From Planctomycetota bacterium (lineage in GTDB: Bacteria; Planctomycetota; JAJSAM01; JAJVHW01): 64,000 nt of DNA. Shown piece by piece: positions 13,480-22,816 of this stretch. Each line of letters opens with the position of its first letter. The stretch's first letter is position 1. Under the pieces are notes generated by a model. The model was given only the letters and a program-made list of their open reading frames with translations, had not been told where the DNA came from and searched no databases. The stretch lies in NCBI GenBank assembly GCA_965248445.1, contig CBDFJG010000002.1, forward strand, positions 704,001-768,000, read 5' to 3'. The translations under genes and the position numbers were made by a program.

Positions 13480-15021
13480 ATGCGATCGCGTCTGACTCAC
13501 TGGGCGGCCGTGCTGACTGTCGCCGCCGTCACGTCACTGACTCACGCCGACACGCAGCAGTCGGGCGAGATCCCGATGCTGACGCCGACGGCGGGGTTCT
13601 CGGCTACGTCCCTGTTCACCGTCGGTGAGGCCGTCGGCGCCTACCGGCCGCCCGGCATCCTCGACGGGCTGGGAGCGTACGTGCACGACGCGAACACGAT
13701 CCGCGTGCTCGCCAATCACGAGCTGTCCGACGACGACGGATACGCGTACGCGCTCCGAAATGGCACCCAACTCACCGGCGCACGGATCAGCTACTTCGAT
13801 ATCGACCGCCGCACACGGCAGATCTGCGCCGCCGGCCTCGCCTACGGCCGCGTTTACGACCGCAGCGGCAAAGAGGTGACCGCCGCGACGCAGATCAATG
13901 AGGCGAGTCAGACCGGTGACGGCCTGGCCCGCTTCTGCTCCGGCCGCCTCGTGAACGCCGGCGAGCGCGGGTTCGTGGACACCGTGTATTTCGCGGGTGA
14001 AGAGGTCTCCGACTCGTCACACGCACACGGCGGCGGCGAGTGGGCCCTCGATGTCGCGAACGGCGACCTGTGGGCGTGCCCGGAACTCGGACGCGCGAAG
14101 TGGGAGAACGTCGCGCCGCTCGACGCCGGTAGCAGCAAGCACGTCGCTCTGCTGATGTGCGACGACACAGCGGGTGCACCGCTCTTCCTGTGGGTCGGCA
14201 AGAAGTCGAAGAAGGGGAACTTCCTGCAGCGCAACGGGCTCGCCAAGGGCAAGCTGTACGCCTGGATCGCAGACGGGTCGGCGCGCGACGCGGGAGACTT
14301 CAACGGCACAGGCGCGACGCTCGCCGGGTCGTTCGTACGCGTCAAGGCGCGCAACCCGCGTCAGGCGCGCCGTGGCGGGTACGACAACCGCGGATACCTG
14401 GACACCTCCACCCTTCGGCGCGAGGTCGCGAAGCTGCGCGCGTTCGAGTTCGCGCGCCCCGAAGACGTGCACGACAACCCGTTCGACGGCACGCAGGCCG
14501 TGTTCGCGACGACGGGCTCGAGCGACTACCCGGACGACCGGTGGGGCCAGGTGATCCGCGCCGAAGTGGACTTCACCAAGCTGAGGAAGCCGCGTGCGAC
14601 GCTGACGATCCTCTACGACGGCGACGAGTTGCCGGAGCCCGACGAGGGAATCCGAAACCCGGACAACCTGGTCTGGTCCGAGGACGGGTTCATCTACGTG
14701 CAGGAGGACGCGTCGCGGAGCGCGTTCGGGACCGTGTCGGACATCGAGGCATCGGTGTGGGCCCTGGATCCCGTGTTTCGGACCGCAACGCGGATCGCCG
14801 AGATGAACCGGTCCGCCGTACCGTCCGGCCAGACCGACGACGACGCCGGAGAGTTCGGGAACTGGGAGTCGTCCGGCGTGCTCGACGTGACGAGGCTGTT
14901 CGAGACAGTCCCCGGCGAGCGGCTGCTCATGCTCGACGTGCAGGCGCATGGCATCGACCTCGACAGCGCCGACCTCGACCAGGGCGGTCAACTGCTGCTG
15001 CTCTCGATCGGCGCGCCCTGA
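13480..15021 (+). CDS. PhoX-like (DUF839) alkaline phosphatase
   Basis: Signal peptide; DGLGA, NHEL, RFCSG, GEE, LGRAKWEN, FARPED, NPDNL, QED, WESSG, DVQAH. Confidence 0.85.
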   Translation: MRSRLTHWAAVLTVAAVTSLTHADTQQSGEIPMLTPTAGFSATSLFTVGEAVGAYRPPGILDGLGAYVHDANTIRVLANHELSDDDGYAYALRNGTQLTGARISYFDIDRRTRQICAAGLAYGRVYDRSGKEVTAATQINEASQTGDGLARFCSGRLVNAGERGFVDTVYFAGEEVSDSSHAHGGGEWALDVANGDLWACPELGRAKWENVAPLDAGSSKHVALLMCDDTAGAPLFLWVGKKSKKGNFLQRNGLAKGKLYAWIADGSARDAGDFNGTGATLAGSFVRVKARNPRQARRGGYDNRGYLDTSTLRREVAKLRAFEFARPEDVHDNPFDGTQAVFATTGSSDYPDDRWGQVIRAEVDFTKLRKPRATLTILYDGDELPEPDEGIRNPDNLVWSEDGFIYVQEDASRSAFGTVSDIEASVWALDPVFRTATRIAEMNRSAVPSGQTDDDAGEFGNWESSGVLDVTRLFETVPGERLLMLDVQAHGIDLDSADLDQGGQLLLLSIGAP

Positions 15022-15076
15022 CGCGGAGGGGAACCCGATAGCCTCTGCTCCGCGTCGAACGTTGGGAGACCACGGC

Positions 15077-16117
15077 ATGCGGACCTCGACCTGGATCAGT
15101 CTTCTCGCCTGCACCGCGCTCGTCAGCGCACTCCCCCTGGCCTCCGCGCAGGAGAAGCCGGCGCCGCTCTGGCCGCAGGAGGGTTACGGGGCGCTTCGCT
15201 CGGCTGCCGCAAAGGCCAAGACGAGCGGGAGCCGCCTGCTGCTCGGCCTCTCCGGCGGCGACCACTGATGACCCTCGTTCAAGTTCGAGAGCGGTTCGCT
15301 CTCGCCCATGCTCGAGGACGCTCGCGTCGTCAAGGCCGCTGAGCCGTACACGCGCCTGTTGATCCGCGTCCCCGAGGCGTACCTGCTGCTGCAGCATTTC
15401 GAGGACGCCACGCGTCCGGGCCTGTTCGTGCTCGATGCGGACGGCAACCCCGTGGACTCGATCTCGTTCACCGGGCTGAGCGGCGAGGACGGCGCGAAGC
15501 AGATCGCCGAGTGGCTCGACGAGACCCGCGAGACGCCTGCGCTCGCAACCATCCGGCTGAAGATCGAAGCCAAGGACATGGACGTGATTGCGGACGCCGT
15601 CGAGGAACTCGAGGGCGTCGAATGGGCCGCGGAGACGGACGAGTCGTTCGACGTGGCCGTCACCGCCGGCACGGCGACACCCACGCACGTGGTCGCAGCC
15701 GTCAAGAAGGCGGGCGGCAGTGCGACCGTCATCGAGCCCGTCGCGGTCACGTTCACAGCGCGACGCAAGGGCGCCGAGTGGAACGCGGGCGACGTCTCCG
15801 CGCTGCCCGGCGTGCAGGCGGTCACGACCGGCGAGCGGCCGGTCGCCTGGTGCGCGCCGTTCTTGCTCGACGGCAAGGCACTCACCGCGGCAGCGCCCGG
15901 GTGGGTGGCCGACGTCGAGGAGACGGTCCATCGCCTGAAGGACTATCCATCGACACCGAGCGGCGCCCGCGTCGCGCGCTACGCGCTCGCGGTGAACGGC
16001 GTCCTGGCGGTGTTCCCCGACATCGCGAAGAGCAGGATCACGGTCGTTGCGCGCCCCGCCGTCACTAAGAAGAGGGTCGCGGACGCCCTCGTCAGCGCCG
16101 GAGTGAAGCCCAGGTAG
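15077..16117 (+). CDS. exported thioredoxin-fold + HMA-like protein with two consecutive in-frame UGA codons (candidate di-selenocysteine protein, 346 aa)
   Basis: Signal peptide ORF and the 15308 ORF are in frame across TGA TGA (15266-15271); LSGGDH**PS aligns to FTGSDWCxxC; RPGLFVLDADG cis-Pro region. Confidence 0.75.
15286..15304 (+). promoter_or_regulatory. SECIS-like hairpin
   Basis: CGAGAGCG-GTT-CGCTCTCG perfect stem; G-initiated apical loop 22 nt after the second UGA. Confidence 0.65.
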
Positions 16118-16247
16118 CCACGCTCGTTTGCGAGGGACCTGGATCCCGGCGATGCTCGCTCAGGAGCCCGTGCTCGGGCAGTCGGCGCATCGCCAACGGG
16201 TGGCATTCGCGCCTCGGCCGCCCCCTCGGGCCGGGGAGGGAGTTCGG

Positions 16248-17231
16248 ATGCGTACCTACCAAGCGGCGGCGTTCGCCATCATCGCAGGCTGTGCCGTGCT
16301 GTTCGGCGGAGCCACGGAGACCTCACGCGCCTCGACCGGCGACCTGAGCAAGCAGCAGGTCAAGCAGCTCGAGAAGGAGTTCAACCAGATCGTGAAGCAG
16401 CACAAGCAGTCGGGGAACAACAATTTCAAGGTGTTCAAACAGGGCATCGGGAACATCAACAAGGACGTCAAGTCGGGGACTGCGGATCCGTTCCAGATCT
16501 TCTTCGACACGACGAACGACCTGGACTTCATCTTCGACGGCAGCCTGTCGTCCACGCGCAACGCGATCGCGGGGATCGAGGGCGTGTCGTCGAGCTTCTA
16601 CGCCGCGAACACCGGCGTGCCGGACTCGATCCCCGAACTCAGTGGCGCTCCCGGGAGTCTCATCGACGACGCCGTCGGGAGCCTGAACGCAAACAACGGC
16701 AAGCTGCTCACCAAGATCCGCAAGCTCATCTCGAAGCTCGAGAAGGCTGCGTGCAAGGAGGACATTCCGCCCTTCACCGGACTGCGCGGCATCCCGGAGT
16801 TCCAGGCCCCGCACGTGGAGCGCACCGGCTTCTTCGGCAGCGGCATGACCGAGAACCGCGCGAATATCATCTTCACGACCTCCGGTGGGCAGACCTCGAG
16901 CCGCGTTTTCTCCGTGCTGGGCTACTTCGACTTCGATCCCCTCGACAACGACGAGACGTGGACCGGACTGTTCGATCCGGACGGCACCGAGCTCGACAGG
17001 CAAGAGCTGACGCCGTCGACGAACGGGGTGTTCCGCGGAGGCTTCTCCACAAGCAGTTCCGGGACCAAGAACATCGGGGTGGACATCTTCGATCCCGACG
17101 ACGACAGCCTGATCTTCGCGGACGGCTTCGAGTCCGGGGACACCTCGGCCTGGACCAACGAGCAGGGGCCGATCAGACCCGTTCAGGCTCGATCTCGTCC
17201 TGCCCCGTGTGGGCTGCGCAGACTGGGCTAG
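16248..17231 (+). CDS. secreted hypothetical protein with near-terminal IFADGFESGDTSAW motif
   Basis: MRTYQAAAFAII signal peptide, GGAG RBS. Confidence 0.75.
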   Translation: MRTYQAAAFAIIAGCAVLFGGATETSRASTGDLSKQQVKQLEKEFNQIVKQHKQSGNNNFKVFKQGIGNINKDVKSGTADPFQIFFDTTNDLDFIFDGSLSSTRNAIAGIEGVSSSFYAANTGVPDSIPELSGAPGSLIDDAVGSLNANNGKLLTKIRKLISKLEKAACKEDIPPFTGLRGIPEFQAPHVERTGFFGSGMTENRANIIFTTSGGQTSSRVFSVLGYFDFDPLDNDETWTGLFDPDGTELDRQELTPSTNGVFRGGFSTSSSGTKNIGVDIFDPDDDSLIFADGFESGDTSAWTNEQGPIRPVQARSRPAPCGLRRLG

Positions 17232-17298
17232 CATTCTTGGACGAGGAAGGGCCTCCGATCCGGGGACGCACGCTGCGTGGGATAGGGAGGATGGACCG

Positions 17299-18954
17299 AT
17301 GAAGGTCGTCAAGTCGCTCACAGGATTCGTCCTGTCAACCGGGCTCGTGCTGCTGCTGTCTGCGCCGGGCCTCTCGCATGGTGAAGAAGAGCACCGGTGC
17401 ATCGAGGACGCCTCGCTGCATCGACCGGAGGTCGGGGCGCCGCTGCCAGAAGCGGAGGGTGGCGTCGTCGTCAGCATCTCGGAGACCTGCGAGTTCGTGA
17501 AGGTGATCGTTCACGAGGTCAGCAATGAGGTCGCGCTGAACGTGACGCTTCAGCGCGAGGATCAGGTGTTCGAGATGGGCGCCGTGCCCGGGTCCGAGGA
17601 AGGCCCGCGCGTGCTGGTGCGCTACAGCTGCGAAGGCGACACGCTGCCAGGCGAGGTCGAGTCCGTCGAGGCGTTCTTCGGTTTCGCGGTCCTCGTCAAG
17701 AATGCGGAGGGCCAGGTCGTCCTGCGCGGCGAGGTGCCGACCCTCGAGTGCGAAGAAGAAGAAGAGGGCGATGGCGAGGGTGACGGCGAAGGCGACGGCG
17801 AGGATGAAGGTGACGGCGAGCACGAGGAGCCCGAGACCGAGATGGGCCACTTCGAACTCGAGCGCCCCGAAGGCGGACTCGAGCCGGAGGCCAACGGCGG
17901 CATCGCGATCTGGAAGCGCGGCGACCGCGAGAAGTTCGTGCTCGAACTCTGCGGCTTCGAACCGGAGTCCCGCGTCCTGATCTACATCAGCGACGGTGAA
18001 GAGGAGTTCGCCCTGGTAGACGACCTCGGCATCGACGGCGAAGGATGTGCACGCTTCTTCCGCGACACCGGCGAAGAGCAAGAGCTCCCGCTCGGACTGT
18101 CGCTCGAGCAGTTGGAAGAGCGCCGCCTGCAGATCCGTGACGGCGAGGGCAACGTGCTGCTGGTCGGCCGAGTGCCGGAACTCGAGGACGAGAAGCACGA
18201 GGAGACCGAGAAGTCCCGCGGGCCGCTCACGCGTCCGGAGAACGCTCCGAACCGCGAGGCCGAAGGCGCCGTCGGCGTTTGGCGCCGCGGCGAGCGCGAA
18301 AAGTTCGACGTCGAGGTGGGCGGTTTCGCCCCCGAGACGGGACTGCTTCTCTTCATCGCGAACGCCGAGAGCGAGTTCGTCTTGGTGGACGACCTGCGCA
18401 CCGGCGAGCGCGGCGGCGCTGAGATCTTCCGCATGAACTTCGAGGGCGGCGAGTTGCCGCTCGGCGTGGACTCGCTCGATGAACTGGCCGGCCGCGACAT
18501 CCAGATCCGCAATCTGGATGAGCAGGTCGTGCTGGTCGGCGAGGTCCCCGCGTTCCGCGCGGATGACGACGGTGATGTGCGCGAGCGTGAGACCCACCGC
18601 GACGAGGTCACCGGCGCCAAGATCGGAGTGCGGGTGCTCATCAAGGTCTCCAAGGGCCGCGAGAAGCTCTCGTTCGAGATGAAGCACCTGCCCAAGGGCT
18701 TCTCGATCAACAAGCGCCGCCGCGGCGGCAGCAGGGAACAGGTCAGCCTGTTTATCGCGGACGAGCTGGGCACGATGACGGAGGTCGGCAGCACGAGAGT
18801 CCGCCGCCGCCGCACGGCGAAGCTCCGCTGGAACAGCAGGAAGGGCCACACGCTGCCCCTCGGCGTGACATCGATCCGCGACCTCTCGGGTCGCGCATAC
18901 GAAGTGAGAATCGGCGACACCGCCGTTGCCGAGGGGTTCATCCCATTCTTCTAG
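17299..18954 (+). CDS. secreted acidic repeat protein
   Basis: GGAGG RBS, signal peptide, 3-4 repeats of about 100 aa (REKF...LPLG...G.VP), Glu/Gly/Asp low-complexity linker. Confidence 0.85.
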   Translation: MKVVKSLTGFVLSTGLVLLLSAPGLSHGEEEHRCIEDASLHRPEVGAPLPEAEGGVVVSISETCEFVKVIVHEVSNEVALNVTLQREDQVFEMGAVPGSEEGPRVLVRYSCEGDTLPGEVESVEAFFGFAVLVKNAEGQVVLRGEVPTLECEEEEEGDGEGDGEGDGEDEGDGEHEEPETEMGHFELERPEGGLEPEANGGIAIWKRGDREKFVLELCGFEPESRVLIYISDGEEEFALVDDLGIDGEGCARFFRDTGEEQELPLGLSLEQLEERRLQIRDGEGNVLLVGRVPELEDEKHEETEKSRGPLTRPENAPNREAEGAVGVWRRGEREKFDVEVGGFAPETGLLLFIANAESEFVLVDDLRTGERGGAEIFRMNFEGGELPLGVDSLDELAGRDIQIRNLDEQVVLVGEVPAFRADDDGDVRERETHRDEVTGAKIGVRVLIKVSKGREKLSFEMKHLPKGFSINKRRRGGSREQVSLFIADELGTMTEVGSTRVRRRRTAKLRWNSRKGHTLPLGVTSIRDLSGRAYEVRIGDTAVAEGFIPFF

Positions 18955-19196
18955 GCCGCTGTCACGACACGCAACCCGGGCAGGGCGTCAACGGACGCCC
19001 GGCCCGCTCCCATTCCGCGCAGCACGCCCCGGAGACCGGGCCGCGCTGCCGGTGCGCGCGTTGTGCTAGGCTGAGATGCGGGAGGCAACACGCGCGCTCC
19101 ACCGGCGAAGCTGCGCCGGGTTCGGGGAGGCGTGCGGCGTGTTGCGGAAGTGTGCGTCCGCGTTCCGTTGAACAGCGCGGACGGTAGGAGGAAGCG

Positions 19197-21545
19197 ATGC
19201 GCCGAATCTTGATCGCCGGTGTGCTGGGTCTGTCCGCTCTGCTCGGTCTCGAACGCGACGCGTTCGCGTGAGGACCGGTCCCCGCACCACCGTGCTCAGT
19301 GGTGATCTGGTGGACGCCTGTCCTCGCGAAGTCCTTCGTCAACAAGAAGAGCGGCGACCTCACGCTGAAGATCGACTACGCGTCGTTCATCGGGTGGAAC
19401 GAGGTGTGCCCCCTCCCGGACTTCGCAGCGATCCGGGTCAACGTGACGGCGACCCCGGTCGGAGGCGGGACGCCGTTCGTAGTCGGGGAGCAGACGTTCT
19501 CACCCACACCGCCGTCGACGCCGGGTCGCCAGCCCGACGCATCGGTCGACTACGTGATCGCCGCAGGAACGCTCTCGTTCGGGGTGGACTACGTGATCGA
19601 GATCATCGGTACGTGCGAGGTGCGGTTCCCAGGCACCGGCCCGGGGACCGGCCTGTACGCCGACACGGCGACGGTCGAGAGCTGCATCGTGCAGCCGACG
19701 CCGCTGGACGAGAACACGCCCCGCCTGGGCATCTGCTGCCTCACGAAGGAAGACGGGCTGGTGTCGATCGCGGAGCGCGGTGACCAGCGCGCGACGTACT
19801 ACCTCATCAGCAACAACGATCCGAAGCACGCGGTCACCATCGATCTCGGGAGCAGCGGTTTCCAGGTAGCGAATCTGCCGGACGGCTTCTCGGTCGCGGA
19901 CGTCCAGGCCGCGTACGACGCGGGTGCGGCGTCGATCTCGAGTCCGGTCGAGGGCGCCGACACCTTCGTCGGCTTCTTCGAGGGAGACGTCCCGGCAAAC
20001 GGCATCGTGCCGAACCCGGCGGATCCAGGGGCCGTCGATCCGCTCACGATCACGCAGGAGGGCCTCGTCCTCGCACCGTTCGAGTGCCGCATGATCTGCA
20101 TCGTCACCCGCAGCAACGGCATGTGCGCCGACGGCTCGTGCTCTCGACGCAACCTCAAGGTCACCGGTGAGTTCGCAGACGGCTCGTCGGCTCTCGCGTG
20201 CGCGATCTCGGCGCACGCCGTCGAGGCCGGCGCGCCGCGACAGGCGCCGCGCTGCCTCTACACAGACACGATCAAGGTCGGTCCGGACGATCAGGTGCTG
20301 TTCTCCCGGGGTCACTTCGGCAACCGGTCGGGGCCGATCCCGTTCGCCGAGACTCACTTCGGCGGGAACGTCACGCCGGCGTTCCAGCCGTTCCCCGGTG
20401 AAAGCTCCACCGAGCTGCGAGGCGCCAACTTCCCCTCGCCGGAGCCGTTCCCTGATCAGGCGTCGGACACGATCGCCGAGGAGCCGTTCCTGGTGGACTC
20501 GTTCTTCGACATCTCGTACGAGATCGAATTCTTCGGTGGCGGCCTCGTCGGCCCGCCGACGCGAAATCGCACGACGGTCTTTGGGATCGGTCAGCTCCAG
20601 CAGGGCGTGCCGGTCGACGTCCCGGTGGTGCTTGTTCAACCCGCGGTGCCTGTGGGGCCGCAGTTCATCGTCGACTCGTTCTTCGACGTCGGGACGGGCA
20701 ACGTCCTGATCCTCGATGCCAGCACCCCCGAGCCGCAGCAGGTCTACAACGGTCCAATCAGCGAGCTCCAGCAGTTCGCAAACGAGTCTTCGCTGGTCAA
20801 CATCCCGCCCGGCACGTGCCGGACGATCTCGAAGTCCGGCAACACGGCTCAGAAGTACAGCGTGCTCGCGCCACACAACCGCACGTTCGTCCTGGGCAAG
20901 AAGGACCGACCGAGCTTCTTCGACGGAGGCATCCCGGTCGTGAATGGGCAGGACACCCAGCCATCGCCGTGGGACGCCGTTCGTGAGGGGATCGGTGTGC
21001 AGCCGCGGTCCCCGAGCGGCACGGACACAGTTCCGATCGAACTCGTCGCACTCGATCTGCAGAGCGTCGATCCGATCGACGTGGACATCTTCGGCAAGAA
21101 GAACAGGGTGCGGGACTTCCACTCGTGGGTCTGCGTCTCGTGTCCCGGCGGCCTCAACATCGCCGACTCGCCGTTCCTCGTACGCGTCGTGAACCTGCCC
21201 GGTAAGCCGGGCATCAAGAAGGACTTCAAGAAGGCGAAGTCGTTCAAGAAGGTCCCGGTCGGCAACACGACGACCGGCATGATCACACTCCGGAACAAGG
21301 GCAAGGGACCGGTGTCGTTCCGACCGCCGGCCACCCTTCCGGCGCCGTTCAGCTGGGTCAGCGACGTCTCGGGGTTCCACACCGTCTACCCCAAGGGCCA
21401 GCTCCAGCTCGAGATCGCCTACACGCCCGTTGGCGAAGACGGAAAAACCAAGGGCAAGGACAAGGTCACCGCCGAGGTGCTGCGGAGCGACAAGGAGAAG
21501 CCTCTCAAGCTGAAGCTGAAGGGCGACTGGATCGACGCTCCCTAG
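19197..21545 (+). CDS. secreted Cys-rich surface protein with in-frame UGA at codon 25 (candidate selenoprotein, 782 aa), C-terminal Ig-like ASH/choice-of-anchor-D-like domain
   Basis: AGGAGG-5nt-ATG; MRRILIAGVLGLSALLGLERDAFA*GPVPAPPCSVVIWW continues in frame into ORF 19299-21545. Confidence 0.75.
19285..19304 (+). promoter_or_regulatory. SECIS-like hairpin
   Basis: CACCAC-CGTGCTCA-GTGGTG; loop starts 19 nt after UGA with G at the second loop position. Confidence 0.55.
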
Positions 21546-21613: not shown

Positions 21614-22816
21614 TCAGGCGCCGAACACGCTCTCGGGTGTCTCGGCGAATCCGTCGAGCAGCGCTGCCATGACGTGTTCGGTGACCTCGTCGACCGCCGT
21701 CTCGAGGTCGTCGTTCACGACGACCGGCACGTCGAGCCGGTCGGCTTCCGACATGAGGAACGTCTGCACGCCCCAGATCTCGTCGAAGTGGTCGAGGTAG
21801 CGCTTTGCGCGGCGATCGGGCGTCTCCTTGCCGCGGCCCTTGATGCGGCGGCGCAGTTCCTTCGGGCTGAGCACACCGAGCAACGCGCGGACGACAATCG
21901 GATCGTCCGCACCGCCGGTCTGCAAGTCCGCGAGCAACTCGCTCTGCAACGCCGGGTGTAGGTGCACACCCTCGAGGATCACACTGACCCGTTCCCGTGC
22001 CGCACGCCCGACAATCGCCTCGGCAGCGACGGAGATCAGTCGGGACTGAGTCAGGTACCCCTCGATCAACAACTCGGAACCGGACTGTGCACCGGGTTGT
22101 GGCAACGCGGTGTGCGCCTCGAACGAGGACACGTGCAACGCGGGCGCGAGCCGGTCGGGGACGATCGTCCGCATCACCTCCCGCAGCATGTCCGTGGACT
22201 GTGTGCGGACGACGTCCATGCGGTGCGCAATTCGTGTGGCGACCGTGCTCTTGCCCGTGCCCGTCGAGCCGCCGATCACGAGAACGAGCGGGCGGTCACC
22301 GTGCCGGAACGCCTCCCACGCGAGGTAGCGCCGTGCGGCGGCGGCACCGAGCCGTTCCTCGAGGAGACCGTGTGTGCGGCTCTTGATGTGCGCGAGGTCG
22401 ACTTCGTTCACGCCCTCGCGGACCAGGCGATCCCGAAGCTCGGTGGCCAGGTCCTCGGACTGCTCGGCACCGATTCCGCACGCGATCAGGCTCTCCCGGT
22501 GGCGTCCGCGTGAGTAACGCTGCGTCGATGCGTCGGACAGCCGGATCTCGAGGCTCCGGATGGGCTGGGCCTTCCGGTAGCTCTCGACGACGTCCGATGC
22601 GACGTCCTGAGCCTCCTCTAGGCGCCCGGCCACCAGCTCCCTGAGGGCGCCCGAATCGATCTCCGTGCGATCCGTCAGCTCCTCGCGCACCTCCGACGCG
22701 ACGCGGTACGCCACCTCGAAGGGCAGCCCGGCCGCCTGTAGAGAGCGGGTCAGGATGCCACGCAGAAACGGCACGCGCGCACCGGTCCCCAGGTCGATGA
22801 CGGCGGCTCTAGCCAC
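21614..22816 (-). CDS. ATP-cone domain 2-phosphoglycerate kinase-like protein
   Basis: PFLRGILTRSL and YSRGRH cone-like repeats; GGSTGTGKS, STDMLREVMR, EGVH. Confidence 0.85.
   Translation of the reverse strand: MARAAVIDLGTGARVPFLRGILTRSLQAAGLPFEVAYRVASEVREELTDRTEIDSGALRELVAGRLEEAQDVASDVVESYRKAQPIRSLEIRLSDASTQRYSRGRHRESLIACGIGAEQSEDLATELRDRLVREGVNEVDLAHIKSRTHGLLEERLGAAAARRYLAWEAFRHGDRPLVLVIGGSTGTGKSTVATRIAHRMDVVRTQSTDMLREVMRTIVPDRLAPALHVSSFEAHTALPQPGAQSGSELLIEGYLTQSRLISVAAEAIVGRAARERVSVILEGVHLHPALQSELLADLQTGGADDPIVVRALLGVLSPKELRRRIKGRGKETPDRRAKRYLDHFDEIWGVQTFLMSEADRLDVPVVVNDDLETAVDEVTEHVMAALLDGFAETPESVFGA

Follow-up and report, generated by a model that had tools for sequence, protein, structure and literature searches.

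The window analysed here, a stretch of 64,000 nucleotides from a Planctomycetota bacterium (assembly GCA_965248445.1, contig CBDFJG010000002.1), contains on its forward strand a gene that carries an in-frame TGA at codon 25 and stays open beyond it for the remainder of its 782 codons. The features of the gene and of its predicted product (in window coordinates) are the following:

19186..19191 (+): Shine-Dalgarno AGGAGG, read from the sequence, 5 nt 5' of the ATG
19197..21545 (+): whole gene, 782 codons and TAG (21543-21545), open frame past the TGA
19197..19268 (+): signal peptide of 24 aa (MRR, a 15-residue hydrophobic core, ERDAFA)
19269..19271 (+): in-frame TGA, proposed Sec25 (codon 25, predicted first mature residue)
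19269..20246 (+): conserved family core, two β-sandwich domains (approximately residues 25-170 and 171-345)
19270..19325 (+): SECIS-like stem-loop, upper stem 19285-19290/19299-19304, apical loop 19291-19298
19299..19304 (+): GTG GTG (Val35-Val36), 3' arm of the hairpin and internal start of the gene callers
19959..19961 (+): Asp255, kept in 99% of the family rows with a +1 Cys and in 2/6 of those without
20118..20141 (+): GMCADGSC loop (residues 308-315, with Cys310 and Cys315), putative partner site of Sec25 by covariation
21222..21524 (+): C-terminal ASH/HYDIN-like Ig domain (residues 676-776), which replaces the variable anchoring tails of the homologues

Codons 1-24, counted from the ATG at 19197, read MRRILIAGVLGLSALLGLERDAFA and are directly followed by the TGA. 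The initial annotation had drawn attention to this arrangement (AGGAGG, ATG, a leader ending in A-F-A, TGA and a frame continuing to 21545), all elements of which are present, and was likewise right that without readthrough the large ORF is devoid of a signal peptide (the longest table-11 ORF begins at GTG 19299 and codes for 748 aa that include no leader) and that the mature chain contains 15 Cys (the number counted 3' of codon 25). Gene annotation truncates the gene at the TGA, and the called product (P0002) begins at GTG 19299. The host genome (G000) harbors no paralogue of the gene, the Rfam search of the window returned a tRNA as its sole match, and a promoter scan detected none. The gene is preceded (13480-18954, +) by a gene for a PhoX-like phosphatase and by three hypothetical ones that match no family (one of them with a paralogue on contig C1), and is followed (21614-22816, -) by a convergent gene resembling ATP-cone and 2-phosphoglycerate kinase proteins. 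As no neighbour recurs among 24 homologue loci, the genomic context gives no function.

Codes 4 and 25, in which TGA is reassigned, were considered and ruled out, given that TGA terminates 2186 of the 3536 modelled genes (being the main stop in the host genome) and that the anticodon of the host tRNA-Trp is CCA. Since TGA is the commonest host stop and the code is not reassigned, codon 25 is either a stop or selenocysteine (Sec). The Sec machinery, on the presence of which the initial annotation had made its reading depend, was found in the host genome (tRNA-SeC, SelA, SelB and SelD, the latter itself with an in-frame TGA), and SelA is encoded by 17/17 genomes of the order, which are all the genomes of the class. 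A coding-potential scan of the host genome yielded 164 TGA candidates, from which 50 were hand-picked by motif, 40 fetched, and the 23 with a domain spanning the TGA retained as a reference set (leaving out a phage-portal site and 16 sites without a spanning Pfam domain). At least 23 host TGA sites are thus situated inside thioredoxin, AhpC/TSA, CMD (AhpD), DUF3179, DUF1223, deiodinase, Rdx or SelD domains, which places the host selenoproteome near the top of the 1-31 range given in the consulted part of PMC1794560.

The host selenoproteome consists mostly of exported thioredoxin-fold proteins, and motifs indicate further Sec sites (including an ArsC-like protein over the NF041106 cut-off and more UxxC proteins). 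One exported protein without family match (L066, G000:C4:680592, +) has a leader ending in S-A-E-A-G followed by U-C-P-R, so that its TGA lies at or near the mature N-terminus, and it passes the published SECIS model; two nearby genes for exported proteins (L065 and L064, G000:C1:334643 and 331183, -) have in-frame TGA codons and hairpins, the former (P-P-T-U-P-G-H) again without family match. Some reading frames of the genome are also interrupted for reasons other than Sec: TAG or TAA candidates number up to 20, and several of these fall within repeated elements. The TGA within a phage portal domain (L037, G000:C1:92080, +) has no SECIS-like hairpin and probably marks a broken prophage gene, and repeated elements (C2:566387, C2:600172, C3:1750470 and C4:33634; C1:9086, C2:872616 and C4:899877) show in all their copies an identical in-frame TAA or TGA that separates two coding stretches; they are either mobile elements present in several copies and interrupted by a stop, or pairs of tightly coupled genes.

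Downstream of codon 25 we observed a hairpin composed of CACCAC (19285-19290), the loop CGTGCTCA (19291-19298) and GTGGTG (19299-19304). It is present in both the MFE and the centroid fold, and its apical loop (CGUGCUCA as RNA, 8 nt) lies 19 nt 3' of the UGA, where the initial annotation had located it. The UGA together with the following 59 nt folds at -27.5 kcal/mol (z -2.28, equalled by 4/200 shuffles), and the folding energy of 35-49 nt pieces alone is not significant (z -0.44 and -0.07). Our own hairpin rule was fixed after the target had been seen, and weight was placed instead on the published bSECIS model (PMC13188914, section 5, in the consulted part and as coded here), which asks for a loop of 3-9 nt, a stem of 4-16 bp, a G within the first two loop positions, a spacing of 16-37 nt and an MFE of at most -7.5. 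The hairpin conforms to this model (spacing 19, stem 6, loop CGUGCUCA, -27.5), as do 15/23 host reference sites, compared with 104/1500 TGA stops and 110/1500 Cys codons, i.e. a background of about 7% of ordinary stops or positions. Our own rule recognised 19/23 references and 106/1500 TGA stops at -6 kcal/mol or better, and since 14.6% of the synonymous recodings of the same peptide also pass it, codon choice alone is not significant. The 8-nt loop exceeds every host reference loop (3-6 nt), and its CGUG start is also seen in several of them. Over the SECIS set of the host the spacing is variable, and an alignment did not bring its hairpins into register. The two codons of the 3' arm encode Val35-Val36 at positions where the family has K/R/Q followed by S/T (Val occurs at 35 in 1/124 homologues and at 36 in 0/124), as though the protein sequence had yielded to the demands of the RNA; residues 39-42 are unusual as well, so that the two valines could also reflect general divergence. 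A stronger hairpin (-16.2 kcal/mol, loop at +20) was found in one Cys-encoding homologue (L012:4001 and L073, a single sequence), where it may be due to chance or be a vestige of a Sec form.

A search of 1.84 billion representatives recovered 190 relatives of the protein (E up to 0.001), nearly all of which, when full-length, have a signal peptide followed by a Cys and by a second Cys 7-9 residues further. In the alignment of the first 450 residues (excluding the query, P0003, P0005 and three cluster members) the TGA column is Cys in 117/123 homologues with a residue there. Named loci belong to Planctomycetota, Verrucomicrobia, Ignavibacteria, Bacteroidota, Calditrichaceae and Proteobacteria, and no model in Pfam or NCBIfam covers the core. 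The tails vary across the homologues (T9SS sorting domains, a weak dockerin match, thrombospondin-type repeats), which points to the N-terminal module as the shared functional part.

AlphaFold2 predicted for the core (with Cys at 25) two β-sandwiches (pLDDT 95.7, pTM 0.91), and for the whole protein a chain of β-domains (89.5) that is nearly all-β. A thioredoxin-fold selenoprotein was rejected as a candidate, on account of this nearly all-β model, the absence of thioredoxin matches in Pfam and NCBIfam, and the position of the next Cys, 8 residues on. Structure searches with the core returned generic Ig-like matches only (Z up to 9.9), among them the α2-macroglobulin domain of E. coli (Z 9.9, rmsd 3.0, 112 aligned) and RbmA (4be5: Z 9.2, rmsd 6.9, 198 aligned), both alike in their β-sandwiches. 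The likeness to Ig-like surface proteins (RbmA, macroglobulin domains, cohesins and ASH/HYDIN domains) is at 8-12% identity one of generic fold and conveys no function; a PDB sequence search gave no match at E up to 1. The C-terminal domain matches Pfam PF22544 (E 3.6e-5) just below its cut-off and aligns to 7ptb_A with a VIA-align Z of 9.9 (rmsd 2.8, 104 aligned). An Atlas search with the Cys homologue P0008 (best 0.88) returned hypothetical or CARDB/DUF11-type clusters, which serve as leads only.

The comparison of homologues at +1, which the initial annotation had suggested, was favourable in one part and indirect in the other: the position is the near-invariant Cys just described, and a second TGA copy was not seen as DNA among the 16 homologue loci. 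Searches over 17, 401, 42 and 59 genomes likewise gave no match with an internal stop except this gene. The +1 codon is TGC or TGT in 15/15 other loci where it was recovered (TGC at the matching position in G005, L003:960), all homologues with DNA either encode Cys at +1 or lack it, and in G004 and G005 SelA is present yet the Cys is retained. The indirect part concerns P0003 (69% identical, alone in its cluster and known from protein alone), the gene call of which begins at the same internal codon as that of P0002. P0003 has Val36 in common with the query, and the longest identical run between the two (residues 35-54) extends over the 3' side of the hairpin; both the start and the run are what a shared in-frame stop and an RNA constraint would give. 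In word-index protein searches only P0002 and P0003 were found, with no shorter fragments among 310 candidates; other N-terminally short homologues exist (P0082, P0117, P0121 and others). A quick ML tree of 40 rows joined the query and P0003 in a clade (support 100) that is sister to P0004 (97) and nested among Cys forms, a topology that fits a Cys-to-Sec change in the ancestor of the query and P0003.

The main rival to this reading, which we regard as improbable, is that a recent nonsense mutation of TGC or TGT to TGA has turned the gene into a pseudogene with a chance hairpin. Such a change requires one base only, the host has other in-frame breaks, the SECIS model lets about 7% of positions through, and this gene is the sole TGA copy seen as DNA, with TGC in the nearest homologues for which DNA is available. 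Against it, the mutation would need to have struck the near-invariant +1 codon (random single-base nonsense has 195 routes in the ORF, 16 of them from Cys codons and 1 at codon 25) and to have met a hairpin at the right offset, the remaining ORF is intact, and the truncation of P0003 at the same codon (at 69% identity) is left unexplained by a recent event. We consider it very probable that codon 25 encodes Sec.

A second family with a TGA at the predicted +1 position was observed in the same genome (G000:C4:226654-226902, -; L081:1399-1647 region). It is a small membrane protein (leader-A-F-A, TGA, P-N-C) with a single transmembrane segment and U-P-x-C; Pfam and NCBIfam contain no model for it, and its gene adjoins SCO1/SenC and DUF420 genes. 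When the 17 genomes were searched with it, 12 of them yielded matches, 15 in all, and 11 of these are clear orthologues (4 weak matches were not recovered). In 9/11 the TGA occupies the predicted +1 position (the host copy and L082-L085, L088-L090 and L093), each time with a GGUC-loop hairpin at +18; the other 2/11 have Cys and no hairpin. All 54 cells of the hairpin alignment pair, 4/6 pairs are changed on both sides, and the covariation score was reached by 0/500 shuffles (slid controls staying well below), the structure having been derived from the same sequences on which covariation was tested. This conservation indicates, independently of the present gene, that the class conserves the placement of Sec immediately behind an A-x-A leader. 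The UPxC protein likely represents an uncatalogued selenoprotein family, and its SCO neighbour suggests that it possibly has a role in copper handling.

As for the present protein, the leader has a clean n-h-c layout with small residues at -3 and -1, and the predicted signal peptidase I site after A-F-A was judged by eye. In the family the -1 position is a small residue (A/G/S) in 97/112 rows with a +1 Cys, and Ala in 86/112. Proline at -1, which is disfavoured by signal peptidase I, occurs in 12/112 of these rows, so the Cys will not be exactly +1 in all members, and some homologues have a long hydrophobic stretch that reaches up to the Cys. These two observations lend some weight to the alternative that UGA is read as Sec and the chain is cut elsewhere or keeps its leader as an anchor, with Sec near, not at, the N-terminus; given the clean leader of the query, the prevalence of Ala at -1 and the same A-x-A|U layout in the UPxC family, this alternative appears quite unlikely. 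Lipidation on Sec, which the initial annotation had kept as a lesser option, found little in its favour. The lipobox follows the pattern [LVI][ASTVI][GAS]C, and as it was found in only 7/112 homologue rows (the A-F-A-U of the query, after E-R-D, fails it) lipidation is unlikely; several homologues end, moreover, in T9SS sorting domains. The central proposal of that annotation, a mature chain that begins with Sec, gains support from the TGA on a near-invariant +1 Cys, the complete machinery, the fitting hairpin and the second family with a TGA at +1, and we hold it with good confidence.

Two further explanations of codon 25 are both very remote. An assembly or sequencing error is opposed by contigs of 4/4 run assemblies that are identical to the stretch (zero differing letters at a depth of 4.6-10.6; one sample, and possibly the source of the genome assembly itself) and by P0003, a separate record that is truncated alike. 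A true stop, followed by a cytoplasmic product of 748 aa from GTG 19299, is what the gene callers chose in both P0002 and P0003, but this start has no Shine-Dalgarno before it, lies inside the hairpin stem, and would cost the product three near-invariant features (signal peptide, +1 residue and Cys33).

Covariation within the family also bears on the partner of residue 25. Among 118 full rows (counting the query as Cys), the +1 Cys is absent in 6 and all 6 are without Cys310, while Cys310 is kept in 109/112 rows with a +1 Cys. The same 6 rows keep Cys33 and Cys71 in 6/6 cases, Cys315 and Asp255 in 2/6 each, and Cys163 and Cys335 in 1/6 each. The lackers are P0022, P0056, P0070, P0071, P0096 and P0141 (also L023, in G001); P0022 loses, of the core set, exactly the +1 Cys and Cys310 (besides Cys163-independent changes) and keeps Cys315 and Cys335. 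Five of the 6 were included in the tree, where they are scattered (some on long branches) and therefore look like repeated losses of one site. Members devoid of the +1 Cys and Cys310 are probably inactive or purely structural versions. This pattern suggests a contact of residue 25 with the GMCxDGSC loop and a pairing of Cys33 with Cys71. The U-x7-C pairing (Sec25 with Cys33) put forward in the initial annotation finds no support in the 6 rows, which keep Cys33 and Cys71 and lose Cys310, and its argument that Sec completes an even set of 16 does not hold, since the closest relative (P0003) has Ser for Cys297 and the number of Cys varies over the family.

We consider the gene, with good confidence, to encode one exported selenoprotein of 782 residues, with Sec25 as residue 1 and Cys310 as its likely partner. 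SelB and Sec-tRNA would decode UGA25 by means of the hairpin just 3' of it, the chain would be exported, and signal peptidase I would cut behind A-F-A, so that the mature chain starts with Sec and its free amine. Sec would replace the +1 Cys of the family, a change presumably made in the lineage of the gene and P0003. Most likely, Sec25 would pack onto the second β-sandwich at its GMCxDGSC loop, and a surface-exposed reactive site would comprise a Sec25-Cys310 selenosulfide with Cys315 and Asp255 close by. If Sec is granted, a redox-active selenosulfide is our tentative choice for its chemistry; a soft-metal (Cu/Zn) site formed by the amine, Se, Cys310 and Cys315 comes as a close second. A purely structural clasp is unlikely (and, according to the consulted part of PMC1794560, a bond of merely structural purpose would be an unusual use of Sec), and a role as N-terminal nucleophile is less likely still.

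Of four features that characterise a bacterial selenoprotein gene, three were observed (the Sec machinery, a UGA at a conserved Cys and a bSECIS hairpin), and with regard to the fourth, a UGA and hairpin shared by relatives, the analysis saw the truncation of P0003 at the same codon and no second copy as DNA. It resembles the SelB/bSECIS selenoproteins catalogued in PMC13188914 (119 families in Table 1) in its in-frame UGA at a conserved Cys, coding-region hairpin, G-U loop start and SelA/B/C/D. It differs from those described in the consulted part of that source in being neither a thioredoxin fold nor endowed with a UxxC/CxxU motif, in having Sec as predicted mature residue 1 and in a partner some 285 residues away. 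No match to this protein family was found among the 119 families of that table, and the text of PMC13188914, as far as consulted, contains no mention of signal peptides, secretion or planctomycetes. SaoB and SaoX (bioRxiv 10.1101/2022.07.06.499078, consulted in part), exported ABC substrate-binding selenoproteins likewise discovered via truncated gene calls, have internal Sec residues (72 and 192) that are proposed to form, with Cys, a metal-binding site; that study required at least ten examples per family, against one directly observed copy and a second that we infer here.

Bacterial lipoproteins and Ntn hydrolases also expose a functional Cys as residue 1 after leader removal. The present family differs from the former by the lack of a lipobox in 105/112 rows, and appears to differ from the latter in its predicted tandem Ig-like β-sandwiches (not αββα), no Ntn hydrolase being present among the fold matches listed. 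In a search over mostly open-access literature we found no paper that describes either this family or Sec at the mature +1 position.

What would be new, in our opinion, is a non-thioredoxin selenoprotein family based on one observed and one deduced copy, strengthened by a conserved second family of the same layout, and we regard such a family as probable. Most Cys-to-Sec conversions fall in thiol-redox families, and as Sec marks residues doing chemistry (PMC1794560, in the part consulted), a single Sec form indicates where the active site lies in an unannotated family of about 190 clusters. More tentatively, exported proteins of this class of Planctomycetota, belonging to two or more unrelated families, may repeatedly begin with Sec once signal peptidase has cut, which would unmask an α-amino-selenol; in the present protein this would be joined to a long-range GMCxDGSC site on an Ig-like scaffold, perhaps for an extracellular chemistry, redox or metal-capturing, that is new and distinct from that of thioredoxins, and the Cys form is present in many phyla and undescribed. 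Such genes would be systematically mis-called as fragments without a signal peptide, and the UPxC family offers a small, well-conserved test case. If this reading is true, selenoproteins would be extended to an Ig-like exported scaffold and to a free N-terminus at which amine and selenol occur together.
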